From assembly GCA_965208435.1 (NCBI GenBank), contig OZ242337.1, positions 1,516,180 to 1,580,179 of the forward strand: a stretch of DNA of 64,000 bases, in the 5' to 3' direction. Below are positions 20,487 to 47,064 of the stretch, piece by piece. The position numbers and the translations under genes were made by a program. The notes under the pieces are model-generated. The model searched no databases and was not told where the DNA came from. It saw only the letters and a list, made by a program, of their open reading frames with translations. Position 1 is the stretch's first letter. Each line of letters opens with the position of its first letter. The DNA is from Candidatus Aldehydirespiratoraceae bacterium (lineage in GTDB: Bacteria; Actinomycetota; Acidimicrobiia; Acidimicrobiales; Aldehydirespiratoraceae).

Positions 20487-20660
20487 GCACGTAGCGGAGA
20501 TCACTGTCCGCGCCAAAGCAGCCTTCCGAGATACTCAGAAGCCGATCTGTTGGCATGCCAACGCTCGGCGGCTTCTGTCGCTGACCGCCAAACGCGGCAC
20601 ATCAACTGAACGGCCGGGCGCTATCGTCCTTGCGATGCAACTCCGTCGGTTAAATTGATC

Positions 20661-22949
20661 ATGCAGGATTTCAAGCATGACTCACCGACCTTCGGGGAGC
20701 TGATCGGCCGTCAGGGGTTGTGCTTCTACGTGCCCACGTATCAGCGCGGCTTCACATGGGGTTCTGACCAGATCGAGCGGCTATTTGAGGACCTATTCGC
20801 CGGAACGGACCGAGTCGCTGCCGGCGACAATCCTTCGACGTTCCTAGGCTCAGTAATCTTCTTCGCTGACAAGTACGCAGTGGAACCCAAGAAGCTAAAC
20901 GCGTTACCAACCCAGGTCTTTAACGTTGTCGATGGTCAACAACGCCTCACGACGTTGCTGCTCGTGTGTTCCAGCCTGATGAGGGCAACGCATCAAGTCC
21001 TGACTGAGCTGGACGCGACCCAAGTTACGGACTCAGATCCAGATCCGACAACGACGTGGCTGCGCGAGATCCTTCAAGCTGTCTCCGGCCGCTTGCTCGG
21101 TGCCCTCCATTTCGACGACGAGCGGGCCGAGAGCGGCTACCGCTTCAAGCCACGCATGATCCGCCAGGCTTCTGACATTTGGGGCAACACCGAAACGGAC
21201 GCCCGCTACGAGAGTGACATCGCCTGGTACCTGCACGCGATGGCGACGGCGAGAGCCGAAACGAGTGCGTACGAACCCGTTGCCGTGTCGCCACACCGAC
21301 CTCAGCTGCGGCTCGCGCTGGAGGCCATCGAATCGGCGCTCGCAGCGGTCCAGACTGGGGAGATTGAATGCGCCGCCTTGTCGAAGCTGGCCTTCGTGAC
21401 CAGTGATGAGGCCTGCGGCCGGCTGCTTGATCGACCAGAAGGGTCACCGGTTGGGTCCTCGTCGTTCAGCGAGCTACAACGCCGCGGAGCCCGCCTGGCA
21501 ACCATCGCGTCCTTCCTTCTAACTCACGTCAAAGTGATCGAGGTCCTTGCACCAAACGAGGAATATGCCTTCACGCTCTTCGAGCCGCTCAATACAACCG
21601 GCCAACCTCTCACGCCGATCGAGACGTTGAGGCCGCTCGTGGTCCAGGCCGAGGGCGGGAGCTCAAATTTCATGAGATCACCGAGTGTTAGGGATCTTGA
21701 GGCCGTGGATCGCTATCTGTCGGAGGACCTCGAACCCGCACCGCGCGCCCGCCGGTTGGACGCACTCATCACATCGTTCGCTCTCGTCGAGCACGGCGAG
21801 AAGATCGGCCGCGGGCTCCTAGCCCAACGCTCGTTTCTCCGCCAGCGGTACGAGCCCGCGGCTGGGATGGATCTGCAGGACAAACGTGCCTTCTCTCGCG
21901 GTCTTGCCACCACAGCGAACTTCCTCAACGACGTGTGGGATGACGACTCGCCAACGATGGTCCGCGACGATGAACGCACGCACCTCTGTCTCGAAGTGTT
22001 GAACACGACGAAGCACAGCATCGCGATTCCCCTTCTCATTCGGTTCTATGAGAGGGCCGACGAGACCAAAGCGGGTTCCGACATCGAGGAATTTCGACAG
22101 GTGCTGCGGTCGGTTACGGCGTTCTGGACGTTGTGGCGAACGGCGCTGACAACCACAAGCGGAATCGATACTGTACATCGTCGTCTGATTCGCGAAGGTC
22201 ACGCAGAAACCAACCTCCCTCGCCTAACCCGCGCGGAGACAGCCCCTGAGGACCTTCCCAAGGCAGAGGACGTAAGAAGCGCTCTTCGCGGCATCCTGCT
22301 GCAGAAGCTGAAGATCAGCGGTCTCGAGGACTGGGTGAACATGGTTGGAGCACGATCGGTGTACCAAACGGAGAAAGCTCTGGCCCGATACCTCCTCCTT
22401 CTGGCGCACGATGACGCTATCGAGGACCCAGGGGCGCCTGGACACTGCCAACGGGGGGCCGGTGAGTACGGTTCTACGCTCAACGTGGCCACCTGGAAGG
22501 CGCACTACACCATCGAGCACATGGCACCTCAGTCGTTCAATGCCGCTGACGCGACGTATGAGCGGGCCATCTACGACGACGGGTTGGTCGATCGACTAGG
22601 CAACCTGCTCCTGCTTCCGGCGGGTCTCAACCAGGTAATCGGCAATCGCCCGTGGCCAGCCAAGCGGGCAATCTACCAAGTGTTGTCGAGTGCGGATCCC
22701 GTCGAACGACAGGATGGGTTCAAGAATGCGGGGCTAACGACCATCGGGCGCAAGGCCGCAGAACTCATCGAGTCGGCAGACTACATGCCGTTCTGCAGGT
22801 TCGTAAGCTCGCTTCCGCCGGACAAGAATCTGTCCGCTGAGTTCGTACGAGAGCGGGCTCGAAGCCTCGCACGACTGGCCTGGGATCGATTGTGGGACGA
22901 TCTTTCTCCAACCGCTCTTGCGTCGCGAACCGAGTTCGAGGACACCTAA
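20661..22949 (+). CDS. sspE: DUF262 (ParB/GmrS-like NTPase) + DUF1524 (His-Me finger nuclease) protein, SspE-like
   Basis: N-terminal YVPTYQRGFTW....I..L..DL and DGQQRLTTL. C-terminal HYTIEHMAPQS...LGNLLLLP..LN..IGN.PW. Located next to sspABCD. Confidence 0.75.
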   Translation: MQDFKHDSPTFGELIGRQGLCFYVPTYQRGFTWGSDQIERLFEDLFAGTDRVAAGDNPSTFLGSVIFFADKYAVEPKKLNALPTQVFNVVDGQQRLTTLLLVCSSLMRATHQVLTELDATQVTDSDPDPTTTWLREILQAVSGRLLGALHFDDERAESGYRFKPRMIRQASDIWGNTETDARYESDIAWYLHAMATARAETSAYEPVAVSPHRPQLRLALEAIESALAAVQTGEIECAALSKLAFVTSDEACGRLLDRPEGSPVGSSSFSELQRRGARLATIASFLLTHVKVIEVLAPNEEYAFTLFEPLNTTGQPLTPIETLRPLVVQAEGGSSNFMRSPSVRDLEAVDRYLSEDLEPAPRARRLDALITSFALVEHGEKIGRGLLAQRSFLRQRYEPAAGMDLQDKRAFSRGLATTANFLNDVWDDDSPTMVRDDERTHLCLEVLNTTKHSIAIPLLIRFYERADETKAGSDIEEFRQVLRSVTAFWTLWRTALTTTSGIDTVHRRLIREGHAETNLPRLTRAETAPEDLPKAEDVRSALRGILLQKLKISGLEDWVNMVGARSVYQTEKALARYLLLLAHDDAIEDPGAPGHCQRGAGEYGSTLNVATWKAHYTIEHMAPQSFNAADATYERAIYDDGLVDRLGNLLLLPAGLNQVIGNRPWPAKRAIYQVLSSADPVERQDGFKNAGLTTIGRKAAELIESADYMPFCRFVSSLPPDKNLSAEFVRERARSLARLAWDRLWDDLSPTALASRTEFEDT

Positions 22950-23434
22950 CCGGCAACTGGTTCACTTGCATCGGACGAGAGCGACTTGACCAGGCTGCGT
23001 GTGAGGTTTTGGAGAGCCGGGAGATGGCCCGCTTCCATCATTTCTTTGACCAGAGGGATCCCGCCCGCTGCGTAGCCCTCGGCGATGTCCAAGACTTTCC
23101 GCGGATCTTGCACGACAAACGGCTCCCCCGTGTGGGCTATGGCCAACAAGAACAGAAACTCAATCGTGGCAAGGTCGCGTTGAAGGACCACGCCGGTGAT
23201 GAACTCGTGGCGTTCAGCACGGTCCACGGTCACAAAATGATCCTGTGATGCTCCTACCGCTGCTGCAAGAAGCCAGAAATCGACATAGCGCTTGAACGGC
23301 GCTTCTTCGACATCCTTGGATCTCCCCTCTGCCGAGCCAAAAGTGGTGCTATAGAGCTTCAGATCCTCGTGGTAGGCCTTGGGCACGTGAATGGATTGGT
23401 TTGCGAATGGGTTGAAGTCTTGGGAGATCGCCAT
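22946..23434 (-). CDS. 162 aa helical protein, last gene of the ssp operon (possibly dnd-associated-protein-4 / PbeA / SspF-like)
   Basis: TGA-ac-ATG coupling to the upstream ATPase. APFKRYVDFWLLAAAVG segment. Family assignment is from memory only. Confidence 0.45.
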   Translation of the reverse strand: MAISQDFNPFANQSIHVPKAYHEDLKLYSTTFGSAEGRSKDVEEAPFKRYVDFWLLAAAVGASQDHFVTVDRAERHEFITGVVLQRDLATIEFLFLLAIAHTGEPFVVQDPRKVLDIAEGYAAGGIPLVKEMMEAGHLPALQNLTRSLVKSLSSDASEPVAG

Positions 23435-23436
23435 GT

Positions 23437-25548
23437 TCACACCGTTGTCTTTCGCTCGCATACCCGACAAGAGGAGTAGTAGTCGCAGTCGCATAGCAAC
23501 GTCTCAAGTCGCCCGGTCCCCGGATCGTTGACCAGTTGCCTCGGGTAATGGTCGGTGAAGGTCATCGTGTAGGTGCGTCCGGTGTATTGATCGAGAATGT
23601 CCTCCACGCCTTGAACTTCGCTTCCCGTTAGGAACATGACAAGTTGCGTTGAATTCTCCGCGGCGTACTCAAGCAGCGATCTCCGGACCAGGGCGCTGGT
23701 CATTCCAAGCGGCGTGTCGACGACGTTGGGAGCACTCACGCCGCTCACACGGACGAGCCCAAGGATAAAGGCCAGCGTCAGTGCCCTGCGTTGCGCCCCG
23801 CTGAGATCCTTGTCGGGGTCGAGCCGTTGGTCATCCGACCCAAAAACAATGATGTCATGCTGGCGAGTTAGCTCCGCTCGCTTAATCAGGCCACCAGACT
23901 CTGGATCGGCAACAATCATTTTGAGAAAGATCCCACTCATCGCCGAACTCACCTCATCGACGGTCTCGCTCTCCAGGGTCTTGACAGTGCTCCGAAGCAC
24001 GGTCAGCAAGTCGTTGGAGGCAATCTCTTCGGCAAGCCGGCGTCGGTACTTCTCCTCCTTCTTGAGGGCCGCTCGTCGTTCCTTGACTACTGCGGCTAGA
24101 TCGCGCTCTTTGTTGCGGATTCGCTCGGACAATCGCGCCGCTTCGCCGGCGAGGCGCTTCGCCTCAGATTCCTCCCCGGTCCGCATTCGTTCGAGTTCGC
24201 TGATGTCTTGGTCGGGGATATCTCTGATGAGAGTTCGTAGCTCGGCCACGTCCTTCTCGAGCCGCCGTTGGGTCTGGCTGCAGCGTACGATTTCGGCTTG
24301 GGAATCATGAGCCTGGACAACCCACGAGTCAGGTTCCTCATCGTCGCCGTTCGTGCCGCGTAATCTCGCAGCAGTACTGAGGTGCAGCAGGATCTCATGG
24401 CTTTGCTCAAGCTGGTCGATCCCTGCCAGGACGTCGCAGAGAGTGGCGTGTGCATCCGTTCCTTCCGACACGTCTGTCCCGCAAATACAGGTCTTGCGAC
24501 GGAGTCGATCTCGCACGACTTCGGGAAGGGTGTCCGGAATGACCCCTTCGTTTTCAAGTTGAGCAAGTAGTTCTCCGGCCTGGTGGATCTGGGTTGCCGC
24601 AACTCGTGTGAGTAAGTCGGAACTGTTGACGAGTCCACGCTGCCGTTTCAATAGGTGATTGTGGTGCTCACGCTCGGCGTCAAGCTCATTTGTCCGATTC
24701 GATAGATCGGACTCAAGCTGTCGACGATCCGCGCCACCAGCGGCAAGGGCAGCATGGAGGGCCTCGACCGCCTTGCGCATGCGAGTTTCGGTAGCCTGGC
24801 GCTCCTCGTCGATCCACTCCTTGTCCCGTTCCAATTCCTGCAAGTCGTTGCTCAGTTCCGTTTCTCGCGTTGCGAGGCGCGCCAAATCGGTACCCGCGGC
24901 GTCTTTCCGGACGGCGGACACTGCCTGTCTCCTCGCGGTGTCCACGTGACGCTCAGCCTCTTCGAGAATGTCGAGTCCCAGCAACTGGCGCACCGCCTTT
25001 TCCACTCGGTCTCGTTTCGCTGAACGTTCGTCAGTTGCCTCAATAAACAGGAGGGCACGGTCCCCATCGATGAAGAAAACATCCTTCAGGCTCTTGGGCA
25101 GCACACGATTGGCGATGAACGCGTTCGGGTTGGACACGGGTTCATCACCTGTTGGCTTCTGCTCAAAGAGCATCAGATCTGATCCGTCTACATCGAAGGC
25201 ACCAGCGTTCGTTGGCCGCTCCTTCGTGGTGCGTACTAGATCGTACGTCCGTTCCATGCCGGTTTCGTCGTCGATGGTTGCGAACCTGATCGCTACCTCA
25301 ATCGCGCAGATCTCGCCGTCGCTTTGGACATCCCAGTCCAAGGGATGAAGGCGGTACTTGGATCTACTGCCGGGTAGCGCGTAGTCGCCAAAGAGGCCCC
25401 AGGTAAGAGCCATGAGAAGCGTCGTCTTCCCGGTGCCGTTCTCGGCACGGATCACTGTAAGGGGACTAGCGGACTCGCGGGCAAAGGAGACCTCGATGTC
25501 GCGGAGCTGCCGGAAGTTGCGCACCTTGGCGTGGTCGAGCTTGATCAT
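23437..25548 (-). CDS. SMC/DndD-like ABC-type ATPase with C-terminal Cys cluster
   Basis: MIKLDHAKVRNFRQL....NGTGKTTLL (Walker A), long coiled-coil middle, LSGAQRRAL signature, and CDCDYYSSCRVC at the C-terminus. Confidence 0.75.
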   Translation of the reverse strand: MIKLDHAKVRNFRQLRDIEVSFARESASPLTVIRAENGTGKTTLLMALTWGLFGDYALPGSRSKYRLHPLDWDVQSDGEICAIEVAIRFATIDDETGMERTYDLVRTTKERPTNAGAFDVDGSDLMLFEQKPTGDEPVSNPNAFIANRVLPKSLKDVFFIDGDRALLFIEATDERSAKRDRVEKAVRQLLGLDILEEAERHVDTARRQAVSAVRKDAAGTDLARLATRETELSNDLQELERDKEWIDEERQATETRMRKAVEALHAALAAGGADRRQLESDLSNRTNELDAEREHHNHLLKRQRGLVNSSDLLTRVAATQIHQAGELLAQLENEGVIPDTLPEVVRDRLRRKTCICGTDVSEGTDAHATLCDVLAGIDQLEQSHEILLHLSTAARLRGTNGDDEEPDSWVVQAHDSQAEIVRCSQTQRRLEKDVAELRTLIRDIPDQDISELERMRTGEESEAKRLAGEAARLSERIRNKERDLAAVVKERRAALKKEEKYRRRLAEEIASNDLLTVLRSTVKTLESETVDEVSSAMSGIFLKMIVADPESGGLIKRAELTRQHDIIVFGSDDQRLDPDKDLSGAQRRALTLAFILGLVRVSGVSAPNVVDTPLGMTSALVRRSLLEYAAENSTQLVMFLTGSEVQGVEDILDQYTGRTYTMTFTDHYPRQLVNDPGTGRLETLLCDCDYYSSCRVCERKTTV

Positions 25549-25793
25549 CAGGATGGCTCCCAACCGGACTTGAGGAGGACCGTCGCTAACGCTTGCGCCT
25601 TGTCGCTGACCTTCTTCTGGATTTGTGTCCTCGCTTCGAGGTGCTCCTTTTCGAGGACAACGATCTGGGCCAACGTCTCAAGAACGTCCCGCCGGTAACC
25701 CGGCACACGGTCCGTTTCATCGATTCGGTCAACCTGCTCGCGTAAGACCGCAAGAAGTTTCTGTTGGCTGACCGTCATTTCGTGTTCCTCCAC
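25548..25793 (-). CDS. 81 aa helical hypothetical protein
   Basis: Stop/start overlap (TGATG at 25546-25550) with the ATPase gene. No motif recognised. Confidence 0.4.
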   Translation of the reverse strand: MEEHEMTVSQQKLLAVLREQVDRIDETDRVPGYRRDVLETLAQIVVLEKEHLEARTQIQKKVSDKAQALATVLLKSGWEPS

Positions 25794-25806
25794 CTATTCT
25801 CGGCGA

Positions 25807-27966
25807 TCATACGATGTACTCCAGTCGGACATCCTGGAGTATGCCCCGTGGTCCCCGAGGGGCGGCGCGGTTCCGCGCGAGCGCTGCAAATTCATCACAC
25901 CTAGCGAGTTCGCCCCGGATCAGTCGCTTTACATCGTCGTCCCTTGGTTCACCAGGCGGTGGAAGGACCAGAAAATCATGAATCGTGGCGTACTCCTTTC
26001 CCAAAGACGAGCACATGCGTAAGACTCGACCCCGTCGCTGAACCCATTGACGCTCGACGGTCGTGCTCGCCAAGATGATTGCCGTCGAGATCTCAGGGAC
26101 GTTCAAACCTTCGTCAAGAACGCGCTTTGCCGTGAGCACTTTGAGGGATCCTTTCCGAAACGCATCGAGCACAGAGTCAACAAGTCTCGCGCTGCCCGTC
26201 TCGTGAGCTGTAATCTGGTGGAATCTGAGACCTAGCGATCGAACAATCTCGTTCACAGCGTCGAGTTGGCTCGGGTCCTTGTCGGTGGCGTAAACGAGCG
26301 TGTGCCGCACTTCATCCGGTGAACCCTGCGTGAGCAGCGTCTTCAGCATTTCGAGCTTTCCCTCCGCCGCCTCAAGAACGAGGCGTCGTCTGTTGAGGAG
26401 TAGTTGCAGTCGCTCCTCTTCTTCGACGCTCGGGGCATCGCCCGCGACGAGCATTAGCCTGCGGATCTGGTCGCAGAGTGCCCGGTAATCCTCAAGCTCG
26501 TCGTGGCTGAGATCGATCGGGTGGAGGTGGTAGTCGTACGGGACAAGGCAAACGCCGATTGCTTCGGCGAGACCGAACTCAAGAACGACGTTACCGAAGT
26601 ATTCCGTCAAGCGAGCTGTACCATCTGGATCATATTGACGTTCGGGGGTTGCCGAGAGTCCGAGCCGATAGTCGACATGGAGAGGCGGCGAGGCAAAGAA
26701 CGAGCCTCCACCGAGATTGTGGACTTCGTCGGCGATAAGCATCATTGGCCCCTCGTAGTTGTCGAGGAGCTCGCGGAACGCGGTATCGTTGAGGAAGTCA
26801 TTTGTCACGATAAGCGCCTCAACGCCTCGCGTGTCGAACTCGATGCGTTGAAGTCGTTCGTCGATCTCACGGAGTCGTCTCCGACGCCCGTGCGTTCCAG
26901 AGACGTACGGGTCGATCCCAAAGTCACGCCATTCCTGTGCCCACTGCGCGACTAACGGGCGCGTCGGAGCTGCAACAACAACGACAAGCCGCCTGAGCTC
27001 GCGCCATAGTCGCCAGGCGCAGAGCAGGGCTGTGATCGTCTTGCCTGAACCGGTGGCCATAGCGAGGATTCCGTGGCGGCCCGCTCCTTCCCATTTGAGC
27101 ACCGCCCGTCCTTGGTGCGAGTACCGGCCGGTCTCCCAGACAAGATTGCTTGGTGGCAAAAACCGGTCCCGGTGCGCGCTGGCTTCCACAGCTGAGCCAA
27201 GATCGCTCCGATAGAGCTTGCCCTCAAGCTCAAGCGCCCTTCGGTATTCCGCTTCGGTGGGTGGTTCGCTTGTGTCGTACGACTCGATCAAGCCCTCTTG
27301 CAGCGCAACCGGGAGATCCACGGCGATCGCATGAGGCTTGGTGTTCGACCAGTACGCCTCGAACTCGCTGACGGCCTCTCGGCTCGCTGTTTCACTGTCA
27401 CCGCCGCGCCAACTGCGATGCAGATTCAGTCGCTCCACGTTGCCGAGAAAGGCTTGGCCCGTGAAATTCGCAGACCCGGACAAGACCGCGAGGTCTTGGT
27501 TGGCTCGGAAGATCCACTCCTTGAGGTGGAATCTCGCATCTTCCACCAAGACCACCTTCATGAGCAGGCGTCGAGTGGCGAGCAAGTAGGCGAAGCAATG
27601 CTTGGTGTGTTGAGCCAGCGCGCTCGCCAGGGCCGTTTCGTCCGAGAAAGCCGATTCGATCGCACCATTGAGCAGCTCAGCTGGACTCCTAGTACCGAGC
27701 CGAATACCGGCCTGATCGGACTCCGACAGCACCGGGCTGACAAGTAGTCGGATCGGTTGATCACTGCGCAGGATGTAGGACGCAAGACCGTGAGATAGCT
27801 CACGGAGGGCCGCTCCTCCGAAGTAGCCGACCATGCAATCGAACCGGTCAGCGACCTGCAGTGCGGGAATGATTACATCCTCGACTACCTCGTCATCTGG
27901 GCGCCGCCATGTCGGTTTTCGGTCGTCGAGCAGCCTGAGCCGCGATACTGCACCACCCGCCACCAT
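25807..27966 (-). CDS. PLD/HKD-nuclease domain fused to an SF2 (ResIII/DEAH) helicase; PT-system restriction-enzyme-like
   Basis: HKD-like FHLKEWIF....VLSGSANFT. Helicase motifs MATGSGKT, DEVHNLG, SATPER and QRRGRVLR. Start is 1 nt after the sspD stop. Confidence 0.8.
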   Translation of the reverse strand: MVAGGAVSRLRLLDDRKPTWRRPDDEVVEDVIIPALQVADRFDCMVGYFGGAALRELSHGLASYILRSDQPIRLLVSPVLSESDQAGIRLGTRSPAELLNGAIESAFSDETALASALAQHTKHCFAYLLATRRLLMKVVLVEDARFHLKEWIFRANQDLAVLSGSANFTGQAFLGNVERLNLHRSWRGGDSETASREAVSEFEAYWSNTKPHAIAVDLPVALQEGLIESYDTSEPPTEAEYRRALELEGKLYRSDLGSAVEASAHRDRFLPPSNLVWETGRYSHQGRAVLKWEGAGRHGILAMATGSGKTITALLCAWRLWRELRRLVVVVAAPTRPLVAQWAQEWRDFGIDPYVSGTHGRRRRLREIDERLQRIEFDTRGVEALIVTNDFLNDTAFRELLDNYEGPMMLIADEVHNLGGGSFFASPPLHVDYRLGLSATPERQYDPDGTARLTEYFGNVVLEFGLAEAIGVCLVPYDYHLHPIDLSHDELEDYRALCDQIRRLMLVAGDAPSVEEEERLQLLLNRRRLVLEAAEGKLEMLKTLLTQGSPDEVRHTLVYATDKDPSQLDAVNEIVRSLGLRFHQITAHETGSARLVDSVLDAFRKGSLKVLTAKRVLDEGLNVPEISTAIILASTTVERQWVQRRGRVLRMCSSLGKEYATIHDFLVLPPPGEPRDDDVKRLIRGELARCDEFAALARNRAAPRGPRGILQDVRLEYIV

Positions 27967-27967
27967 G

Positions 27968-35167: not shown

Positions 35168-35170
35168 GGT

Positions 35171-36224: not shown

Positions 36225-36303
36225 CAAACCAACCACCACCGCACACCCACCAATGCGACTTGAAAAAACCCGCAACCTGTCGCGAAGAGTCAGATACACC
36301 TCA

Positions 36304-36688: not shown

Positions 36689-36972
36689 CACCATGCGAGT
36701 GCCCTCCTTGGTGTGACCCCAGAATCTTCTAACAAACCTGATTCTCCCACACCAGGAGGGCACCTCGCGACAACAACCACCCACACACAGACCCCACTAC
36801 TGAAAAATCCGGGCTAGAGTCCGAAACTCAAGCAAACGCGGATTGCAGCTTACGACGGAATGCTGCAATACAATTGGAGGGAAATAGCCAGCAACGAACC
36901 AGGACCGACACTGGCCGACATGTCGCGGCCCTCGGGCCGCGCTGCACCACCGATCACTGCTACCAATGCGAC

Positions 36973-39900: not shown

Positions 39901-41007
39901 GACGCGATGATGTCAAGCGATTCAACATTTGTTGTGACGGACAATCTGTCCGCACTGATCACCGATCTGACTGACAACGTCTTGCCGCGACTCAGCAGAC
40001 CGGATGAGTATCGAGCGCTTACGGTCTACATCAGTGAGACAGTCCTAGAAAAGCACCTGCAAGGCGCTATCGGCGAGCCATGGCGACTCATTGGTCTAAA
40101 GGGTCATCCACCAAGTCTTGACTCCCTCCGATCCACGTTGCTGGACCTGCACGCAGTAATCAACGAACTAGCGGAGGCCGATGCCGACGCAGCTCGAATC
40201 AGGAGGAGCGCCCGATCAGGGGCACCAGCACGTGCGCTGCAGCGCGCCGCAGAGACCTGCACGAAGGCCGAACGCCGCCGCAATCAAACCAGACGCACCA
40301 CTGTCCAATCGACCTTCCGAGAGACCGGTCTGGCAGCCAAGGTCCGACACATCGATCACGAAGCCGCCGGCAGGGCCCGGTACTTGGTGTCGGTTGATAT
40401 CGCTTCGCTACTCGACTGGCCGGACGCTGTCGCTAACCTTGTGGAAGCGCTCGGTACGGACCGACCAATTGGAGAGACCTGCGTCTTCGTTCCGCTGCGC
40501 GATGGCCGGCCGATTCCAAGCCTCACTATGAAGCTGATCGATAACTTGTGGCCGTTCCCCAATCCTGAGGGTCTCGACTCGCTGCCTGAGGCGCATCCCA
40601 GCACCTATGCGGACTTATTCAACCAGTGCCAGCATTCCCTACAGACACTGTCGGGCATCTCCCAGTTGCCAGATGAACAGCAGTCCCACGAGATCATCCT
40701 CGCTGTCGTTGACTCGGCCACATCGGAATTCGCGACCGCCTTTGAGCAAATCAATGATCTCCCTAGCGATCCGGTTGTCAGTGACCTTCTCGAACTTCTC
40801 ACTGGGACCACGGTTAGAGTCCAGTCGGAACTAGAGGGAACAAGCACGGAGCCGTGTTTCGCTGAGCAAATCATGACCGGGATGCTCGATGGTGGCGGAA
40901 TTCCTGAGTTAGACACGATTATCCTTGCCCGTTACCTAGCGTTGGAGTGGGACATCGACGCAAATGATGCGGTCAGATTCTACGACTCCTTGATATCCGA
41001 GAGTTAG
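36973..41007 (+). CDS. Giant defence-type protein: Cap4/DUF4297-like PD-(D/E)xK nuclease + P-loop (STAND-like) NTPase + about 800 aa helical C-terminus (Avs-like)
   Basis: GRGFHFQDEIGAWL.....LVPEGFEDSTLEG..PIHIQVKSR (nuclease), ITGPSGVGKSAVLW (Walker A), GFLVDGAG and LLLATARSED. An alternative TTG start lies at 36874. Confidence 0.65.
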   Translation: MAKKRAKRRKRGSKRRIAPVRQSIEGGLEETRPVEADKDSNVELLVSQWAESRSGARAGRGFHFQDEIGAWLAARLACGIGPACLVPEGFEDSTLEGDEPIHIQVKSRVEHLDKFPPSTASRHILDAWERHASREHRGAGLIVVLERGVTGEKDLNELDDLDTSLANRLDRGSALITDLTTRAMSRGMSERELSELLGTTVVSGASRAEVLAATVAHIRSQWNLPPSALRLVARQLCSDVADASDANATASFETRRRLDRTAVVSAIEQTVAQLDLESLEFAVRQGICETLAYPESQPSDDRYYEGTATQPSHVASNLVVPRPELVAEVLSGLDDRSAAVITGPSGVGKSAVLWTIPLALPGVLWFRVKRLSTPDVLHLIRLARAYDVAHDRPVGFLVDGAGTTEFTAWAELRSAAAALPGLLLLATARSEDLFVLGDLSTCASIDVRLDEAAAETIFAGLVRRESTDAAHWMEAFEASNGLTLEFTHLLTRGNRLDDVINEQIRRRIDEERHDELDVLALASVADRWSARLSTDALAQACGLANFQLRAALSRIAAEHLIVERDGEVGGLHRLRSVALCDAIHLLPPPQLAQTIKRVVPRVPDPQLYRFAASILVEMPEIHRIVMEAGISSGLEAERFIALGQGFRLAGFYERARKWKQIAQEQNIPVSSQPVLVLFATAGLEFPDMFPVELRTAHDAMRCAVDEGFRDTLTTAIGHAEVADLIASESSLDRATSMLEVINGSPPELTNALREALDAGTSFEVSLRSASLEDLTRCIAATRGCAPQLAAHVVDLLGGEPAVLRKIRTENPWIIELDTRSVDGESIGYCRFLHVSDSAQPDVGEEAIALGRLLLRCLPNIDGVDVQALWPGGLPMTIGNHTIGISHLKRQHDHTPADLAWNQVRLRAAQTLLGAADTTRLFQALPLLERASDLILRLGNGLVSGSVHDLEDLNAQLVELREGAHALHPPLGSALLSDAMMSSDSTFVVTDNLSALITDLTDNVLPRLSRPDEYRALTVYISETVLEKHLQGAIGEPWRLIGLKGHPPSLDSLRSTLLDLHAVINELAEADADAARIRRSARSGAPARALQRAAETCTKAERRRNQTRRTTVQSTFRETGLAAKVRHIDHEAAGRARYLVSVDIASLLDWPDAVANLVEALGTDRPIGETCVFVPLRDGRPIPSLTMKLIDNLWPFPNPEGLDSLPEAHPSTYADLFNQCQHSLQTLSGISQLPDEQQSHEIILAVVDSATSEFATAFEQINDLPSDPVVSDLLELLTGTTVRVQSELEGTSTEPCFAEQIMTGMLDGGGIPELDTIILARYLALEWDIDANDAVRFYDSLISES

Positions 41008-41125
41008 CTACCCGGCTTCTAGTCAGGACCCCACCCTTGATCTCCCTCGCGGCTTCGCGACACCGGGTTGGGAGAACACCGGGTGACGGGACTGTGAACC
41101 GTTCGAATAGGCGAATCGTTCTGTA

Positions 41126-41141
41126 TTCTTGTGTACAAGAA
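41126..41141. promoter_or_regulatory. Inverted repeat ttcttgt-gt-acaagaa plus agaacag direct repeats in an AT-rich spacer upstream of the AbiE-like operon
   Basis: Read directly. Lies 25-40 nt upstream of ATG 41166. Confidence 0.3.
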
Positions 41142-41165
41142 CAGAGAACAGATACATTCAGATCC

Positions 41166-42212
41166 ATGGCTCGACGTACCAACGCTGTCATGGGGCAGGA
41201 CGCTGTAGACGACTTGGCCGAGGTTCTAGGTCGGATAGGCGTCGTTACCGACGTCTTGTCGAGGGAGCAGTCTGCCGGGGGCACGCGTGTCGATGCCGTG
41301 GTCGAGGTTGCTGGCCGGCAATTCGATGTCGAGGTCAAGTCGGTGGTCACTGCAGCGCACGGAGCGCACTTGGCTGGAATTGTGAGGCCAGACGTGCCGC
41401 TGATAGTTGTTGCCGATCGCATCGCTGCCGATGCCAAGCTGTCACTGCGTGAGGCGGGGGTCAACTACTTCGACCGGCGCGGAGAATTGCGCGTCGTGGC
41501 CCCACCGTTGATCATCCACACGGATGTCGAAACCACCCTCCCAACGGCAGGCATTCCCTCCGGGTCACTCGACAGTCAAGTGGCCAAGGAAGTCGCAATA
41601 GCTTGCTTGTTGACGCCGGACCAGCCCCACGGTGTTCGTCAGATCGCCCGCTACATCGAACGAGCGCCCAGCGCCGTCTCCAAGGCGATGACGGGGTTAC
41701 GAGACGACGGCCTACTCACCTCCGCTGGTGAAGCGTTGGTCCCGGATCTCTTCCACGCGCTTCTGTCGGTGTGGCGACGACGGGCTGTTCTGCTGGATGC
41801 GCTCCCTGAACCTGGCGCCCGCGAGGCAAGACGTCTGGGACTTGGTCTCGACACGCCCGAAGACTCCACAGGTTGGGCACTCACCGACACCCGAGCCGCC
41901 GCGTCATGGGGCATACCGATCGTCGCAACCGGCGATTACCCTCCAGACTTCTACGTGCCCTCCAAGTCATCCCTACGTACCGCACGCTCGCACCTGGGCG
42001 AAGCAACCAGTCCCGCTTCGCGCGCCTGCACCGTGGCGGTGGCACCCGTCCGGCTCGCGTGTCTCCGGAGAGTAGACCACTCCCGCGCAACCGGGGAGAA
42101 GTGGCCGGTAGCGAACCACATCGTCGTCGCCCTCGACATCGTCCAAGACCAAGCTCGCGGACTCGAAGCACTCGAGCAGTGGAAGCCCGAAGGGATCGCT
42201 CGTGCCTGGTGA
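41166..42212 (+). CDS. Three-part protein: PD-(D/E)xK-like N-domain + wHTH + AbiEi-like C-terminal domain (putative antitoxin/regulator)
   Basis: VDAVVEV.GRQFDVEVKS (D...ExK-like), HGVRQIARYIERAPSAVSKAMTGLRDDGLL (wHTH). 11 nt overlap with the downstream NTase gene. Confidence 0.5.
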   Translation: MARRTNAVMGQDAVDDLAEVLGRIGVVTDVLSREQSAGGTRVDAVVEVAGRQFDVEVKSVVTAAHGAHLAGIVRPDVPLIVVADRIAADAKLSLREAGVNYFDRRGELRVVAPPLIIHTDVETTLPTAGIPSGSLDSQVAKEVAIACLLTPDQPHGVRQIARYIERAPSAVSKAMTGLRDDGLLTSAGEALVPDLFHALLSVWRRRAVLLDALPEPGAREARRLGLGLDTPEDSTGWALTDTRAAASWGIPIVATGDYPPDFYVPSKSSLRTARSHLGEATSPASRACTVAVAPVRLACLRRVDHSRATGEKWPVANHIVVALDIVQDQARGLEALEQWKPEGIARAW

Positions 42213-42969
42213 GTCTGTCGTCCTTGAGAGCGACCGCGCCGGCCAGATCCGATCATTCGTCGACGCGCTCAACCGCTTCCCAACCAAACCTCCCTGGGCG
42301 GTCGTCGGCGGGTTCGCCGTCTACGTGCGCATCACCGATGTCCACCGCGTCACCAACGACCTCGACACCGTGACCAGCGACCAGCCCTCGCTCGTCGAGA
42401 TCCTCGCCGCTGGACCCGGTGCCGAACGCCTCGCTGCCGCCAAGCTGCAGATCAACCAAGGCGGCGCTGCAGTCGTAGTCGACGTAATGGGCGACACGAG
42501 CGACACTCCACTGCCAACCGACCCCGGTGAGCGGGCCTTCGCCCTCGCCCGACGCATGGCGCTATCCACCAGCGAATCAACCGAACTTCTTGTATTCGAA
42601 GACGAGACCGTCGTCACTCGGACGAGCGCTCCGATCGCAACCGCATCCTCACTCATCGCTCTCAAGGCTGTCGCCATCCCCCGGCGCTCCCAAAGCAGCA
42701 ACTCCGCGAAGGTCGGCTCTGACATCCACGATCTCGTCCGTCTAGTCCACAATTCCGACTTCGACGATGCCGTCGATTCCATCAGCGGGGCCGGTGCTGA
42801 GGTTCGGGACTGGGTCGGGACGACCCTGGTCAAATGGTTCGCGCCAGACAAGGACCTCCGATACACCTCCACGAGACTCCGCCGGTTTACCTCTTCGCCC
42901 GACGCCCAAGTACTCACGGACGACGATCTTGCTATCGTCGCCGAACTCGGCCACGCGCTCCTGTCGTAG
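42202..42969 (+). CDS. Nucleotidyltransferase, AbiEii/AbiGii toxin family-like
   Basis: WAVVGGFAVYVR......VTNDLDTV (GG...D.D NTase core) and K.GSDIHDL. GTG start with gaaggg 8 nt upstream. Confidence 0.65.
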   Translation: MPGESVVLESDRAGQIRSFVDALNRFPTKPPWAVVGGFAVYVRITDVHRVTNDLDTVTSDQPSLVEILAAGPGAERLAAAKLQINQGGAAVVVDVMGDTSDTPLPTDPGERAFALARRMALSTSESTELLVFEDETVVTRTSAPIATASSLIALKAVAIPRRSQSSNSAKVGSDIHDLVRLVHNSDFDDAVDSISGAGAEVRDWVGTTLVKWFAPDKDLRYTSTRLRRFTSSPDAQVLTDDDLAIVAELGHALLS

Positions 42970-43058
42970 CAGAATCACGACTGTCTGAACTTTACTCTCC
43001 GACCGATCTGCCACGAAGCCCTAGTTTCCCTAGCGAATCAACGGGTTGGGTCACGCTC

Positions 43059-43922
43059 GTGCTTATCTTCGCGTGTGCTAGACAATACGCCGTGTTCACG
43101 TTCATCGGTCTCGACCTGGCTTGGAAGGCAAGCAACGAGAGCGGCATCTGCTGGTTTGAAGGTGAGACGTCTGAGAGCCTCACATGTGTGCGGTTCGAAG
43201 CCGCTGTGTGCGATATTGACGACCTCGCTGACGAGATCGCCCAGGTGCCCGGGACGGTGGTCGTCGCGATCGACGCTCCACTGCTCTATACCGCTGACCG
43301 AGATGTCGAGAGGAAAATTGGCCGGCAGTTTGGTCGCTACCACGCATCCGCACATTCGGCGCATGCCGCGGTGCGTCGAGGGTGGAGAGCTGGAATTGAT
43401 CTCGGTGTTGCCCTCAAGGATCGTGGCTTCACACTCGACCCGGCCGTGCTTGGGCACGAACGCGATTGCCGCGTTGCGGTTGAGGTCTACCCGCACACCA
43501 TCCACGTGCGTCTGTTCAACTTGACTGAACGTCTGCCATACAAGCAAAAGCGGAGGCGACCTGTCGCCTTCCGTAGAGGGATCTTCAACCAGTACCAGGG
43601 TCACCTGCGAGCACTGGCGGAGCGCCAGGTGCCGGGTGTGCTCGCCCATCCCGATATCCAGAACGCCCTCGCACCACAAACGGCCCAGGATGCCAAGGGC
43701 GCCGGCCTCAAGCATTTGGAGGACAAGCTCGACGGACTCACCTGCGCACTCGCTGCTTGGCTCGCATGGAGCAACCCTCTGGAATGGGAGACGATCGGCG
43801 ACATGAACGGCTACATGGTTGTACCGCACCCAGCGGCTGCGCTTCCCCCCACAGGAATCGACTCGGATACCATTCGAAACGCCGTGTCAGAAGCGAAAGA
43901 CGAACTCGAACTTGGACGATGA
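43059..43922 (+). CDS. DUF429 family protein (predicted RNase H-fold nuclease); start GTG 43059 or 43092
   Basis: FIGLDLAW, VVAIDAPL, EVYPH.. and LED..DGLTCA patterns typical of DUF429. The listed ATG 42834 would overlap the previous gene by 136 nt. Confidence 0.55.
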   Translation: MLIFACARQYAVFTFIGLDLAWKASNESGICWFEGETSESLTCVRFEAAVCDIDDLADEIAQVPGTVVVAIDAPLLYTADRDVERKIGRQFGRYHASAHSAHAAVRRGWRAGIDLGVALKDRGFTLDPAVLGHERDCRVAVEVYPHTIHVRLFNLTERLPYKQKRRRPVAFRRGIFNQYQGHLRALAERQVPGVLAHPDIQNALAPQTAQDAKGAGLKHLEDKLDGLTCALAAWLAWSNPLEWETIGDMNGYMVVPHPAAALPPTGIDSDTIRNAVSEAKDELELGR

Positions 43923-43935
43923 GCAAGGCGGAGCA

Positions 43936-45597
43936 CTAGCCCGGATTTTTCAGTAAGCCGTCGGGGGGTGGCTGTGGGGGCTGGGTCGGGCGCGGCGGCG
44001 GGTGCGGGGCGGTTGGTGGGCGTGTGGGGGCGTGTGGGGTTGTCCGATGCTGTTTGAAAAAACTTCAGGATCTGTCGCGCGAAGTCAGATGCAACACAAC
44101 GCAACCCAAGATGCAACCCAAGTGCGGTGGGGGGTGTGTTCAGATGAGTAGGGGGAGGTTGTGTACTCGTTGGAACGCGGTGATGAGGTGGGGGGTCCAT
44201 GGCCAGTCGTCGGCGAGTCTGGCGTAGCGGCGGCGGCCGGTGTATGTGAGCCGGGCTGCGGTGTGCAGCAGGCAGTAGCGCAGCCGTTTGGGTTCGGCTG
44301 TGGCGAGGTCGCCGTCGAGGGTGAGCAGGCGGGTCCATGCCAGCAGGTCGTGCGCGGTCATCGACAGTTGTATCCAGGCGGAGTTGGTCTCGAACGAGTG
44401 CGACGGGAGTTTGGCGAGCCCGGTGGCTTTGTTGTCGCGGATCTGTTGCTCGGCGCGGCCTCGGCCGCGGTGGAGTGCTTCGATGTAGGCGATGTCGGTG
44501 TCGGCCAGGTCGGTGATGAGTACTTGCAGGCGGCGCCCGCGGGTGTCGGTGAAGGTGAGTTGCGCTCCGGGGTGGGGGTCCTCGCGGCGTGCGATCATGC
44601 GGCAGTTGTCGGGGCGGCCTGACAGGTCGACGTGTTCGGTGATCTCGGTGACCTCGGCGTGGTCTCGCAGTTCCGAGCCGTCAGCCGATACCGCCGGCTG
44701 CCAGTGCTTGTCGCCGATTTCTGTTACAGCGGCTGCGATGTCGATGCTGAGCGGGTGGCTCACACAGAAGCGGACCTGACGCTCGCGGCACGCTTTGAGG
44801 AACGCCTGGGTGCATCCCGCGGAGTCGGCGCGGACGACCACCTCGACTTTGCGGGGGTCCACAGGGATCTGCTCTAAGGCGTCGTCGAGGACCTCGGTGT
44901 GGTCCGTAGCGGTGTTGGACCCGGCGTTGCCGGGGCGCAAAAGACCGGCCAGCGCCTCACCGGTCGCGTCGAGGTACGCCATCAGCGGATGGAACCCGAA
45001 GCCGCCCTTGTAGGTCCCCGCGGCGCCCTGCTTGTTGGAGTGCGAGTCCACCAGCGTGGCGTCGATGTCGATCACATAGAACCCCGGATCCGCGCCCGCG
45101 GCCCACACCGCGCGGCGCGCTGTGGCCCGCGCCGCTTTGATCTGTTCGACACGGCCCCCCGCAGCATCAAGGGTCCGCCACAGCGTCGACAGCGACGCGA
45201 CCTCCCCGAACAGCCCCCGCTGACAACCCAGCGCGGCGATATCGCTGATCGCCTCGCCACCATCAGCGATCATCACCGCCGCGTCAGCAAGCACCCGGCC
45301 CCGGTCATGGCCCCGGTCCCGCACCTTGGTCGACGCCATCACCTCAGACAACGCCGCCGTCAACCCCGTGTTGTCGGCCAGATCAGCCAGCAGCCGCGCC
45401 CCGGCATGAACAGCCAGACCCCGCCCCCCGCCAGTGAACCTCAACCGCGGCCGACCGCCATTATGCTTCACCATGCGAGTGCCCTCCTTGGTGTGACCCC
45501 AGAATCTTCTAACAAACCTGATTCTCCCACACCAGGAGGGCACCTCGCGACAACAACCACCCCCACACAAACCCCACTACTGAAAAATCCGGGCTAG
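43936..45597 (-). mobile_element. IS1380-like element, copy B, intact (1662 bp, flanked by CTAG on both sides)
   Basis: Terminal IRs cccggatttttcagta / tactgaaaaatccggg with ctag at each end. Encloses a full-length transposase gene. Confidence 0.85.
44140..45474 (-). CDS. IS1380-family DDE transposase (444 aa from MVKHNGG)
   Basis: FYVIDIDATLVDSHSNKQGAAGTYKGGFGFHPL motif. aaggaggg lies 6 nt upstream of ATG 45474. Confidence 0.85.
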   Translation of the reverse strand: MVKHNGGRPRLRFTGGGRGLAVHAGARLLADLADNTGLTAALSEVMASTKVRDRGHDRGRVLADAAVMIADGGEAISDIAALGCQRGLFGEVASLSTLWRTLDAAGGRVEQIKAARATARRAVWAAGADPGFYVIDIDATLVDSHSNKQGAAGTYKGGFGFHPLMAYLDATGEALAGLLRPGNAGSNTATDHTEVLDDALEQIPVDPRKVEVVVRADSAGCTQAFLKACRERQVRFCVSHPLSIDIAAAVTEIGDKHWQPAVSADGSELRDHAEVTEITEHVDLSGRPDNCRMIARREDPHPGAQLTFTDTRGRRLQVLITDLADTDIAYIEALHRGRGRAEQQIRDNKATGLAKLPSHSFETNSAWIQLSMTAHDLLAWTRLLTLDGDLATAEPKRLRYCLLHTAARLTYTGRRRYARLADDWPWTPHLITAFQRVHNLPLLI

Positions 45598-45665: not shown

Positions 45666-45702
45666 CTCAAAGTGTTATATCAAACTACCTCAAAGTGTTA
45701 TA
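45666..45702. promoter_or_regulatory. Two direct copies of ctcaaagtgttata (45666-45679, 45689-45702) upstream of the AAA/DUF4143 gene
   Basis: Read directly. AT-rich stretch 38-75 nt upstream of ATG 45740. Confidence 0.3.
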
Positions 45703-45739
45703 CGCTTGTCTGGAGCCTGAACACGCAAGGAGTTTCACT

Positions 45740-47035
45740 ATGGATGAGGGGATACCACCCTTCCCCAGCTACCGGGCCAGATTGGCAGAAACTGAAGTTC
45801 AGCAAGCACTGAATCGCCGCGGCGCTGTGCTCCTTGAAGGCGTTCGCTGGTGCGGGAAGACTTCGACCGCGCTGCGGTTTGCCAACAGCGCACTGCGTCT
45901 AGACGACCCAGACGCCCGAACTCTGGCAGGAACCGACCCCACCGAGGCGCTGCGCGGGAACACCCCCCGACTCGTTGACGAATGGCAGAACGTTCCTCAA
46001 CTGTGGAACCGAATACGGCGCGAGTGTGACGAGCGAGCCACACCAGGTCAGTTCATCTTGACCGGATCAGCGTCGCCGCGTGAAGACATCACACGTCACA
46101 CGGGCACCGGTCGCATCGCTCGGGTGAAGATGCGACCCATGTCGCTGTTCGAGACTGGTGCCTCCGACGGTTCTACTTCGCTCCGCCAACTCTTTGCTGG
46201 TGACACAATCACCAAAGCTGCTCAAACCGATGTCGGGCTACGCGATATCGCATCGTGGATCTGCACCGGAGGATGGCCGGCACACATCGGCCTTGACAAA
46301 ACCACAGCACGGCGGTCGGCGCGAGACCATCTCAATGAGTCGGTGCTCGTTGATGTTGGCTCCGCCGGCGGAGTACGCCATGACCGCGACTCGCTGATGG
46401 CGCTCGCCCGATCCATCGCTCGTAATGTCGCGACCGAAGCACGCACCTCGAAACTCATAGCCGACATGGTCGGATCAGAAGCCGACTCAAACACGGGTGT
46501 CTGGCGCCAGACAGCCACCACTTACCTCGCGGCGCTACGGCGCATCTTCCTTATTGAGGACCAGCCAGCATGGCCGGGCCACCTAAGGTCCCGAGCAGCG
46601 CTTCGCAAAACTCCAAAACGTCATTTCGTGGACCCGTCGCTCGCCGCGGCTGCATTGCAAGCATCACCGGAGCAGCTCCTCACCGACACAAAGACGCTCG
46701 GGACCCTGTTTGAGTCACTTGCTGTACGCGACCTGAGGATCTACGCCCAACGAGAATTTGCTTCGGTGTACCACTACCGAGACAGCGACAACCTTGAAGT
46801 CGACGCGATCATCACACGCGACGACGGTGCCTGGCTCGCCGCAGAGGTAAAGCTCAGCCACAACAGCGACACCATCGACCAAGCAGCCAAGAACCTGCGA
46901 CGTCTACGGGACAAAGTCACCAAGCAGCGCCAGCAGGACTTAGCGGGCCTGCTCGTGATCACAGCACTCGGGCCGACTTACCGCCGACCTGACGGAGTTC
47001 AGGTAGTCCCCATCACGACTCTCGGACCCCAGTGA
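45740..47035 (+). CDS. AAA-type ATPase with DUF4143 C-terminal domain
   Basis: LLEGVRWCGKTSTA Walker A, LVDEWQ Walker B, later ..YYRDSD..EVDAI.. pattern. aaggag SD 8 nt upstream. Confidence 0.75.
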   Translation: MDEGIPPFPSYRARLAETEVQQALNRRGAVLLEGVRWCGKTSTALRFANSALRLDDPDARTLAGTDPTEALRGNTPRLVDEWQNVPQLWNRIRRECDERATPGQFILTGSASPREDITRHTGTGRIARVKMRPMSLFETGASDGSTSLRQLFAGDTITKAAQTDVGLRDIASWICTGGWPAHIGLDKTTARRSARDHLNESVLVDVGSAGGVRHDRDSLMALARSIARNVATEARTSKLIADMVGSEADSNTGVWRQTATTYLAALRRIFLIEDQPAWPGHLRSRAALRKTPKRHFVDPSLAAAALQASPEQLLTDTKTLGTLFESLAVRDLRIYAQREFASVYHYRDSDNLEVDAIITRDDGAWLAAEVKLSHNSDTIDQAAKNLRRLRDKVTKQRQQDLAGLLVITALGPTYRRPDGVQVVPITTLGPQ

Positions 47036-47064
47036 TCATTCGTAACGGGTCGATGATGCTGGAT

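Follow-up and report, generated by a model that had tools for sequence, protein, structure and literature searches.

The window analysed here is a 64-kb stretch of DNA from contig OZ242337.1 of Candidatus Aldehydirespiratoraceae bacterium, and its subject is the 26.6-kb segment at positions 20487-47064, which lies between the tRNA-Thr(UGU) gene and azlD and carries putative defence genes and insertion sequences (IS). This segment is probably the current occupant of a lineage-wide, integrase-free defence hotspot, whose modules would turn over by homologous recombination. Its size and content vary from genome to genome, it contains neither a recombinase gene nor repeats of an attachment (att) site, and several of its modules are more similar to their counterparts in related genomes than the flanking genes are. 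An earlier note on this DNA had described a defence island of about 26.5 kb directly 3′ of the tRNA gene, in which all open reading frames (ORFs) are defence-related or mobile. Both its location and its gene content are borne out by tiling the segment with Pfam, PADLOC and NCBIfam matches (Table 1), and its start holds; its end, which had been placed at 47035-47040, moves outward, as the variable segment runs to 47064.

Related loci were collected by scanning one genome per species with the LytR_C protein, which gave 17 loci, all of them in Acidimicrobiales metagenome-assembled genomes (MAGs) and many in Ca. Aldehydirespiratoraceae. Together with two further loci, L018 and L019, these make up a set of 19 related loci, all of different species. 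Each relative was viewed over 10 kb on each side of the anchor gene, and the intervals of L002, L004, L005, L006 and L015, in which azlD does not lie within 10 kb, are incomplete. The left flank, FdhD-THAP4-GroEL-GlxK-LytR_C-tRNA-Thr(UGU), is kept in 17 of 17 related loci, and the right flank, azlD-azlC-qor(-spoU), where qor is of the quinone-oxidoreductase type, was found in 11.

The edges of the slot are sharp. Nucleotide homology to the window breaks off at 20484-20498 in 16 of the 17 loci, with aligned identity stopping immediately past ...CTCGGGCTC of the tRNA, at the discriminator base; the CCA is not encoded in the tRNA of seven relatives, the closest ones included. Homology resumes at 47062-47067 in eight loci (L003, L007, L008, L009, L010, L013, L018 and L019), where conservation starts, as the alignment shows, with the azlD stop codon, which begins at 47065. 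The variable segment therefore starts one base past the tRNA. Conservation reaches 91% over 153 nt that span the spacer between LytR_C and the tRNA together with the 5′ end of the tRNA gene, compared with ~80% identity in coding DNA of the same relatives. An inverted repeat at 20532-20577 is not claimed as a feature, since neither a scan for terminators and promoters nor the folding of 114 nt past the tRNA rose above chance (z=-1.05); the window and L002 also resemble each other too weakly over some 100 nt downstream of the tRNA for homology to be claimed. Beyond azlD, the azlC gene on the minus strand has an in-frame TAG at 47784-47786, where nine relatives have CCG or CCC (Pro), so that azlC is here either a pseudogene or affected by a sequencing error.

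The interval between the tRNA and azlD ranges from 1.1 kb in L017 to 26.6 kb in the window. It measures 2.1 kb in L013 (truncated SspE only), 2.4 kb in L003 (MOSC and YdeI-like genes), 3.3 kb in L009, 4.6 kb in L008, 7.0 kb in L001, 7.5 kb in L007 and 7.9 kb in L010. The suggestion that LytR_C-tRNA-Thr might be followed directly by azlCD in relatives thus holds for the conservation of both flanks, but the two are never directly joined, 1.1 kb being the shortest distance. Interval ORFs fall into 57 clusters, about 45 of which are confined to a single locus. Among the relatives the slot houses ApeA, Fic, HTH-M78 pairs, GmrSD variants, Mrr, two CBASS systems, PIN/CcdA, PDC-M30A and IS elements, as well as Pbe-like systems with an N4/N6 methylase and MTaX1, and a protein with a Cas9-type HNH motif; L003 and L016, with metabolic-type genes, are exceptions to this defence content. 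The same whole block as in the window is present in no relative examined. An exact-protein look-up (LytR_C; also P0104) returned no same-species record, and a metagenome scan with a 26-nt tRNA-upstream-spacer pattern retrieved two loci only, on a 2-kb contig and a 29.8-kb contig, probably the L016 sequence.

The segment is fully tiled by defence and IS genes, and intergenic gaps do not exceed about 190 nt. This leaves no room for an unseen recombinase gene, so the absence of one is real and not an annotation gap. No tyrosine or serine recombinase was found by Pfam, PADLOC or NCBIfam among all ORFs tiling 20487-47064, and no second copy of the tRNA 3′ end (last 12-40 nt) was found in the 64-kb window, even at 10 mismatches in 40 (25%); both absences agree with what had been seen from the letters alone. 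There are no phage or conjugation genes in the window, and a megablast search of the island against plasmid and phage collections gave only one 83-nt PAPS-reductase match.

The same is true of the relatives. None of the 19 related loci, including the eight complete intervals, holds a second copy of the tRNA end; in 10 relatives, as in L018 and L019, the tRNA has no integrase beside it; and among the matches listed (25 of 45 Pfam families) for the 37 remaining ORFs of the relatives there is no recombinase. IS transposases were the only mobility genes found across the loci. The absence of integrase and att repeats across all these loci points to a property of the site and not to the decay of one element, contrary to the earlier suggestion of an old and degraded island. 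A 400-aa protein adjoining the tRNA in five relatives was considered as an integrase and rejected, as it gives a weak Cas9-type HNH signal and no recombinase signal. Proteins of 320-400 aa with this weak HNH signal form a family (L009 8435-9637, L010 8443-9636, L001 8603-9592, L008 8036-9004, L018 62-1231 and L007 2902-4059) that adjoins the tRNA in several relatives and lies on the azlD side in L007; the family is not represented in the window.

GC content is 0.608 in the island versus 0.632 and 0.646 in its flanks, as the earlier note had judged by eye, and analyses of GC at third codon positions (GC3) and of tetranucleotides agree. The 14 non-IS island genes have a GC of 0.56-0.64 and a mean GC3 of 0.672, versus a GC of 0.655+-0.019 and a GC3 of 0.791+-0.039 in 29 core genes of the flanks (Mann-Whitney p=5e-7), and the tetranucleotide correlation to the flanks is 0.825 inside the island versus 0.890 outside (p=4e-6). 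The compositional shift is genuine yet modest. IS genes are host-like in composition (GC3 0.75-0.81). A GC3-based gene caller performed well in the flanks and failed inside the island because GC3 is low there; longest ORFs and profile matches were used there instead.

Modules of the island were compared with the flanks by identity at 4-fold degenerate sites in each genome sharing a module. In L005, PbeD-PbeC-PbeA-SspD are identical to the window at 0.761 of such sites versus 0.587 in the flanks (p=7e-15); the values are 0.744 versus 0.599 for SspC-SspD in L004 (p=3e-7) and 0.928 versus 0.601 for orf391-AbiEii in L010 (p=1e-37). The closest relative, L001, deviates in the opposite direction, with 0.570 for orf391 versus 0.828 in the flanks (p=2e-12). 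The histories of the modules therefore differ from that of the surrounding chromosome. The Ssp block is wholly missing from L001 and L007, the closest relatives.

Module junctions fall at gene boundaries. L005 shares window positions 22941-29570, and another GmrSD gene replaces SspE there; L004 shares SspC-SspD down to window position 27975 and then has a helicase, an MzaB-like GHKL ATPase and a PLD protein in place of PbeABCD. L008 matches the window with an identity of 0.91-0.95 at 8-13 kb, across the island modules and along the right flank, whereas L008 10000-15840, which equals window 14652-20486 and abuts the tRNA, is identical at only 0.77-0.90, the level of distant relatives. This 6-kb stretch looks like a recombinant tract ending at the hotspot. 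Traces of deletion are seen as well: the SspE gene of L013 has lost its 3′ part and is joined there to the tail of the azlD-proximal gene, and the DUF4143 gene of L001 is internally deleted, its first ~20 nt and the upstream region being joined to the last ~70 nt. Horizontal acquisition, which the earlier note had proposed, is thus supported by the deviating composition, by modules that exceed the flanks at 4-fold sites and by the finding of one cassette elsewhere in L026 and L025 (see below); we also checked for an identical block shared by relatives and for an unbroken composition, and found neither.

Table 1. Features of the tRNA-Thr(UGU)-azlD slot in the window.
Feature	Position	Strand	Evidence and remarks
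tRNA-Thr(UGU)	20411-20486	+	ARAGORN; sole tRNA of the 64-kb window; left anchor
SspE	20655-22949	+	Pfam GmrSD_N and GmrSD_C; PADLOC SspE E=4.9e-181, full length
PbeD, DndE-like, 182 aa	22946-23494	-	NCBIfam dnd_assoc_4 E=8e-5, below cutoff
PbeC, CxC-type ABC ATPase	23437-25563	-	Pfam AAA_23; PADLOC PbeC E=1e-54, DndD E=1e-40
PbeB, 81 aa	25548-25793	-	ORF between PbeA and PbeC
PbeA, HKD-type nuclease region and SF2 helicase	25807-27966	-	Pfam ResIII/DEAD/Helicase_C; PADLOC PbeA E=1.2e-176, residues 18-701
SspD, PAPS-reductase-like	27968-28834	-	Pfam PAPS_reduct; PADLOC SspD E=8.6e-109
SspC, large ATPase	28809-32288	-	PADLOC SspC 1046 bits, full length
SspB, DUF4007	32285-33340	-	Pfam DUF4007 E=4e-85; PADLOC SspB E=2.5e-103
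SspA, cysteine desulfurase	33341-34501	-	Pfam Aminotran_5 E=2e-70; PADLOC SspA E=6.6e-126
IS-B, second copy of DDE_Tnp_1_4 IS	34691-36813	-	62-bp left end and 510-bp right end; CTAG on both sides
IS3-like element nested in IS-B	34753-36303	+	orfA 34844-35167, orfB 35286-36224; Pfam rve and rve_3
Avs-like giant, 1344 aa	36970-41007	+	PD-(D/E)xK (Cap4-like) nuclease, STAND NTPase, C-terminal half
Putative AbiEii partner, orf391 (391 aa; 348 aa from about 41166)	41037-42212	+	Weak ArsR-type helix-turn-helix (wHTH) match, NCBIfam
AbiEii-type nucleotidyltransferase toxin	42202-42969	+	Pfam E=2e-6, 28.3 bits (cutoff 22.5); PADLOC AbiEii E=3e-5
DUF429 protein, PADLOC candidate PDC-S44	42834-43922	+	Pfam DUF429; PDC-S44 E=1.5e-51
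IS-A, intact, 1654 bp	43940-45593	-	Transposase 476 aa, 44140-45570; Pfam DDE_Tnp_1_4 E=6e-63
AAA_14/DUF4143 ATPase, PADLOC candidate PDC-S01	45695-47035	+	Pfam; PDC-S01 E=1.5e-71
azlD	47065-47370	-	Pfam AzlD; right anchor, followed by azlC and qor

IS-A has CCCGGATTTTTCAG terminal inverted repeats, and its insertion point is uninterrupted in L001, where both flanking sequences are present; CTAG stands on either side of it. By its length of 1654 bp, 4-bp duplication and CC-starting ends, the DDE IS may belong near the IS1380 family under ISfinder criteria. Self-BLAST aligned the ends of IS-B with those of IS-A (34685-34752 with 43934-44001 at 100%, and 36304-36817 with 45084-45597 at 99%); 1082 bp of IS-B have given way to the 1.55-kb IS3-like element, so that only 62 and 510 bp of IS-B are left. 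Of the IS-B transposase gene, which is destroyed, the minus-strand ORF 36290-36784 represents the N-terminal fragment. The IS3-like element has imperfect terminal inverted repeats (34738-34806 and 36250-36318), and L019 has a copy of it, 84% identical, that likewise neighbours a DDE IS of this kind. A 62-nt stretch of IS-A (44041-44102) matches, in reversed orientation and at 89%, the left inverted repeat of this IS3-like element (34749-34809), which suggests that the element targets that sequence of the DDE IS.

IS-A and IS-B lie in the same orientation and bracket the block of the Avs-like, AbiE and DUF429 genes (36818-43939). This block is present without IS next to azlD in L018 (window positions 36948-43817, 86% identity), and parts of it are present in the same way in L010 and L008. 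An Upx-like gene and CBASS stand ahead of it in L018, whereas IS-B directly abuts it in the window, which makes an IS-associated deletion between sspA and the Avs-like gene plausible. The CTAG duplications of each IS copy, the occurrence of the block without flanking IS in relatives and the host-like composition of the IS genes indicate that the IS are late insertions; they contributed at most one deletion at one module junction. In L019 (positions 1-8100), azlD is still the right neighbour of the Avs-like block, but on its left the two IS and a truncated Upx-like gene are followed by ABC-transporter and hydrolase genes instead of the tRNA-Thr flank, suggesting an IS-mediated rearrangement or an assembly join.

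In the turnover that we propose, the content of the slot would be a mosaic of SspE, of SspABCD-PbeABCD, of the Avs-like gene with the AbiE-like pair and DUF429, and of the DUF4143 ATPase, each exchanged separately. DNA from related lineages would arrive by any route, conjugative elements existing for at least one module, and would be fixed by homologous recombination, with crossovers in ~200 nt of near-identical tRNA and spacer, in azlDC or in genes shared inside the slot. Crossovers in the conserved tRNA and spacer would produce the sharp left edge without an integrase. Deletions would afterwards trim the content, and the three IS copies would have inserted last, one of them probably deleting DNA between sspA and the Avs-like gene.

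Several points weigh against this account. The junctions at 22941 versus L005 and at 27975 versus L004 have no visible homology on one side, and junctions of this type call for illegitimate joining or for a replacement at a later time. Repeated site-specific integration would also produce variation that sets in precisely where the mature tRNA ends, as it does here. With five intervals incomplete, an integrase could lie further in, and a weak recombinase match could hide among the 37 ORFs outside the listed 25 of 45 Pfam families. The sample consists of one genome per species, mostly MAGs, so that the comparison is between species, and there is no empty site among the relatives, the shortest interval measuring 1.1 kb. 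Since variation starts at the last tRNA base in every genome, with or without CCA, and neither integrase nor att repeats were seen in the 19 loci, we also allow a low probability for an unrecognised insertion route specific to the tRNA end. Such a route may involve a recombinase encoded elsewhere and acting in trans, with the islands as integrase-less satellites, or a nuclease whose cut at the end of the tRNA promotes the replacement of cassettes.

The segment might instead be the remnant of one or more classical integrative elements (a genomic island, an integrative and mobilizable element, an integrative and conjugative element or a prophage) that entered the tRNA-Thr 3′ end by means of a tyrosine integrase, the integrase and attR having since been lost, or the integrase acting in trans. 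The position of the island fits: it begins exactly where the tRNA ends, all relatives diverge right after the discriminator base whether CCA is encoded or not, and the 3′ ends of tRNA genes are a classical type of att site (Williams 2002, cited in PMC10250203). Conjugative carriers also exist, judging by the Ssp-Pbe operon beside a relaxase and a coupling protein in L025. However, such an origin is unlikely given a fully tiled island without a recombinase, the lack of a tRNA-end repeat in the window and in 19 related loci (eight complete intervals), the lack of an integrase adjoining the tRNA in 10 relatives, L018 and L019 and the lack of phage and conjugation genes in the window; moreover, modules with different histories do not fit a single element. 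That the content is ancestral, inherited vertically and differentially lost elsewhere, its lower GC being the usual AT bias of defence genes, appears quite improbable. The equal order of modules relative to the anchors in the window, L005, L004, L013, L018, L019, L010 and L008 would follow from it, as would the deletion remnants in L013 and L001; L001 has the DUF429 tail and both ends of DUF4143 at a flank-like identity of 87-93%, and the Avs-like block compared with L018 and L019 is barely above the flanks (86-88% versus 79-84%). Yet identity at 4-fold sites lies far above the flanks for Ssp-Pbe and orf391-AbiEii in L004, L005 and L010 and far below them for orf391 in L001, the closest relatives L001 and L007 lack the whole Ssp block, and L026 has the same cassette at another locus.

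Assembly in place by IS, the other alternative offered by the earlier note, is not supported either. It would have the Avs-like/AbiE/DUF429 block brought in by an IS-A/IS-B composite transposon and blocks joined by IS events. The two bracketing copies are indeed one IS in one orientation, all three IS copies of the window lie inside the island at module junctions, and L019 has the same block bordered by the same two IS types with a different genomic region as left flank, which suggests IS-mediated rearrangement. Against this, each IS copy has its own CTAG on both sides (not decisive, as the target itself is CTAG), L018 has the block next to azlD with no IS at its borders, as L010 and L008 have parts of it, the IS-A insertion point is empty in L001, IS-B is inactive, and the Ssp block is not bracketed by IS; we therefore regard this origin as very unlikely. 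Exchange of modules by homologous recombination at a shared slot is what we prefer to all of these.

SspABCD and PbeABCD form an eight-gene minus-strand operon and, together with the convergent SspE gene, a nine-gene unit. Each of the five Ssp proteins is matched by its PADLOC model from end to end, in agreement with the Pfam domains. Judging by its genes, the eight-gene operon would write phosphorothioate on DNA and restrict. SspE is described in the literature as a phosphorothioate-sensing NTPase and nickase. The earlier reading of all eight genes as an ssp operon is right for the first four; the last four are not Ssp genes but of the PbeABCD type.

We rejected the name SspFGH for the genes after sspD on the grounds of their domains. 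According to PMC8092258, a Walker A motif marks SspF and an FtsK/SpoIIIE-like C-terminus marks SspH; by this published description, not by profile, SspFGH was set apart from the DEAD-box helicase, small ORF, AAA_23 ABC ATPase and DndE-like protein encoded here. The four genes match the published PbeABCD layout of HKD-helicase, small protein, CxC ABC ATPase and DndE-like protein (PMC10853773). A HLKEWIFRANQD...SGSAN motif is visible in the N-terminal part of PbeA, while Pfam gave no PLD match in the window PbeA itself, and PbeC has a ‘CIC’ motif mid-sequence. PMC10853773, from which the Pbe names are taken, presents PbeB as small and rapidly evolving, and genes for 63-77 aa stand at its position in L025 and L026. 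The true start of PbeD is probably near 23434; its homologues in L025 and L026 match PF27807 DNA_S_mod_dnd_assoc_4 and occupy the equivalent operon position.

The SspABCD-PbeABCD operon recurs in L005 (1-6632), L025 (3499-14969) and L026 (3430-18081) and is thus present in at least four genomes. In L026, the nine-gene unit with convergent GmrSD/SspE lies between rsmE and citrate synthase, an unrelated chromosomal site, and has a GC of 0.527 versus 0.68 in its flanks; in L025, the neighbours of the eight-gene operon encode a TrwC relaxase and a type IV coupling protein. Ssp and Pbe genes move together as one unit. A 75%-identical copy of SspE stands in the same position in L013, and divergent GmrSD genes are found at the SspE position in L004 (42%) and L005. 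L004 2497-6900 encodes SspABCD and then a helicase (dnd_restrict_1/RadD-like), an MzaB-like GHKL ATPase and a PLD-family nuclease (ZacB/DrmC-like), and its 42%-identical SspE lies further on, adjoining the tRNA; this trio may serve the Ssp modification module as a further partner in restriction.

A precedent for one modification module with two restriction modules is provided by SspE and SspFGH, known from the phosphorothioate systems SspABCD-SspE and SspABCD-SspFGH (Xiong 2020; Wang 2021, PMC8092258); in that system the second effector is SspFGH, whereas in the window operon it is of the PbeABCD type. PbeABCD (DndCDEA-PbeABCD and CxC-DndE systems; Xiong 2019; PMC10853773) is known together with Dnd modification genes, with methylases or on its own; here it stands with sspABCD. 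No description of PbeABCD in one operon with sspABCD was found in searchable literature. SspABCD-PbeABCD with convergent SspE may be a distinct, recurrent three-module phosphorothioate system, in which one predicted modification module would serve two different predicted restriction modules.

The 1344-aa giant gave no match in Pfam, PADLOC or NCBIfam (E<=1e-3), nor in PDB sequences. Its homologues, of which more than 300 were found and none is named, occur across Acidimicrobiia and further actinobacteria. Conserved positions are E89/D93/E97/Q105/K107 and those of the Walker A sequence GPSGVGKS. An AlphaFold (AF2) model of residues 1-720 has a predicted local distance difference test (pLDDT) score of 81, and Foldseek matched it to Avs3 (E=2e-11, prob 1.0), Avs5, SAMD9, Avs4, NLRs (RPP1), Apaf-1 and, for the nuclease, Cap4. 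The C-terminal half (38920-41004; pLDDT 88, predicted template modelling score 0.79) is modelled as helical repeats with two beta-sheet inserts, and its best hit to a solved structure, at E=0.16, was not significant. Distant homologues are either solitary genes surrounded by IS elements or have SIR2, KAP-NTPase and Hachiman genes around them. Avs3, too, combines an N-terminal PD-(D/E)xK nuclease and a STAND NTPase in one large protein encoded by a single gene, and the giant matches it by fold only; unlike Avs proteins it matches no PADLOC, Pfam or NCBIfam model, though its homologues sit in defence neighbourhoods. The designation ‘Avs-like’ given in the earlier note thus holds for the fold and not for any sequence profile. 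Going by the models, it is probably a fair description of how the giant works; membership of a defined Avs family is not claimed.

The remaining members of the inventory drawn up from the sequence (SspE, three IS, an AbiE-like pair, DUF429 and AAA/DUF4143) were all confirmed (Table 1). The putative AbiEii partner gene overlaps that of AbiEii by 11 nt, and the pair is conserved in L010, L018 and L019; neither the partner in its 348-aa form nor AbiEii had a sequence match among PDB chains. The tail of the DUF429 gene (43833-43942, last ~105 nt; ...AALPPTGID..IRNAVSEAKDELELGR and stop) recurs in five relatives, at 85-95% identity, as the end of a gene that is unrelated in the rest of its length (L001 3269-3375; L008 7541-7650 and 5248-5355; L009 7944-8052; L010 5711-5817; L007 2335-2440). 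The similarity begins abruptly at GCTGCGCTTCCCCCC, and L008 has both versions; the tail could mark a junction left by recombination or represent a C-terminal module common to both genes.

Smaller insertions lie outside the slot. One, at 12969-14651, is small, strain-specific and of low GC (0.566 at 13-14 kb); it holds a HipA_C kinase-like ORF (12985-13911) and an ORF with a weak HIRAN domain (13969-14715), and is missing from L001, L007 and L008, where its flanks join directly. Another, at 49510-52065 between qor and the SpoU methylase gene, contains a 756-aa ORF (49633-51903; GC 0.614) with a choice-of-anchor R domain; L001, L003, L008, L009 and L013 have only 39-175 nt in its place. A GC trough of 0.461 at 4001-5000, with the minus-strand ORFs 4057-4689 and 4689-5021 that have no Pfam match, is probably another small foreign insert.

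The slot is a further example of the already known core defence hotspot type, and current concepts are unchanged by our findings. What they add is the presence of this layout, known from Pseudomonas and E. coli, in a family of mostly uncultured Acidimicrobiales, together with sequence traces of slot turnover: a flank tract, apparently recombinant, abutting the tRNA, modules more alike than the core and deletion scars. The slot can also be used for finding new candidate defence genes in this clade, such as the Avs-like family, the SspABCD-PbeABCD operon and the helicase/GHKL-ATPase/PLD trio of L004.

Like a classical tRNA genomic island, the segment lies directly 3′ of a tRNA, deviates in composition and is patchily distributed; unlike one, it has no integrase, no attL/attR and no transfer genes, and it is a mosaic of module histories. 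The closer parallels are the core defence hotspots (cDHS) cDHS1 and cDHS2 of P. aeruginosa, where no mobility gene can be detected in 29-47% of the occupants (Johnson et al. 2023, PMC10250203), and hotspot #37 of E. coli, where 68% are without a detectable mobile genetic element (Hochhauser et al. 2023, PMC10121019). For the P. aeruginosa cDHS, homologous recombination via the flanks was proposed as a transfer route (PMC10250203). Occupants with integrase, prophage or conjugation genes occur in P. aeruginosa, whereas none were seen in our 19 loci, and cDHS were defined by variation between strains of one species, while the slot described here varies between species of a family. It also differs in its host, Actinomycetota of the order Acidimicrobiales that are mostly uncultured, and in its anchors, tRNA-Thr(UGU) and azlD. 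With these hotspots it shares a fixed place between core genes with a tRNA or tmRNA at one edge, variable size and content, richness in defence genes, a GC below that of the core and many occupants without mobility genes; IS3-family transposases are their commonest mobile genes, and the slot of the window, too, holds an IS3-like element.

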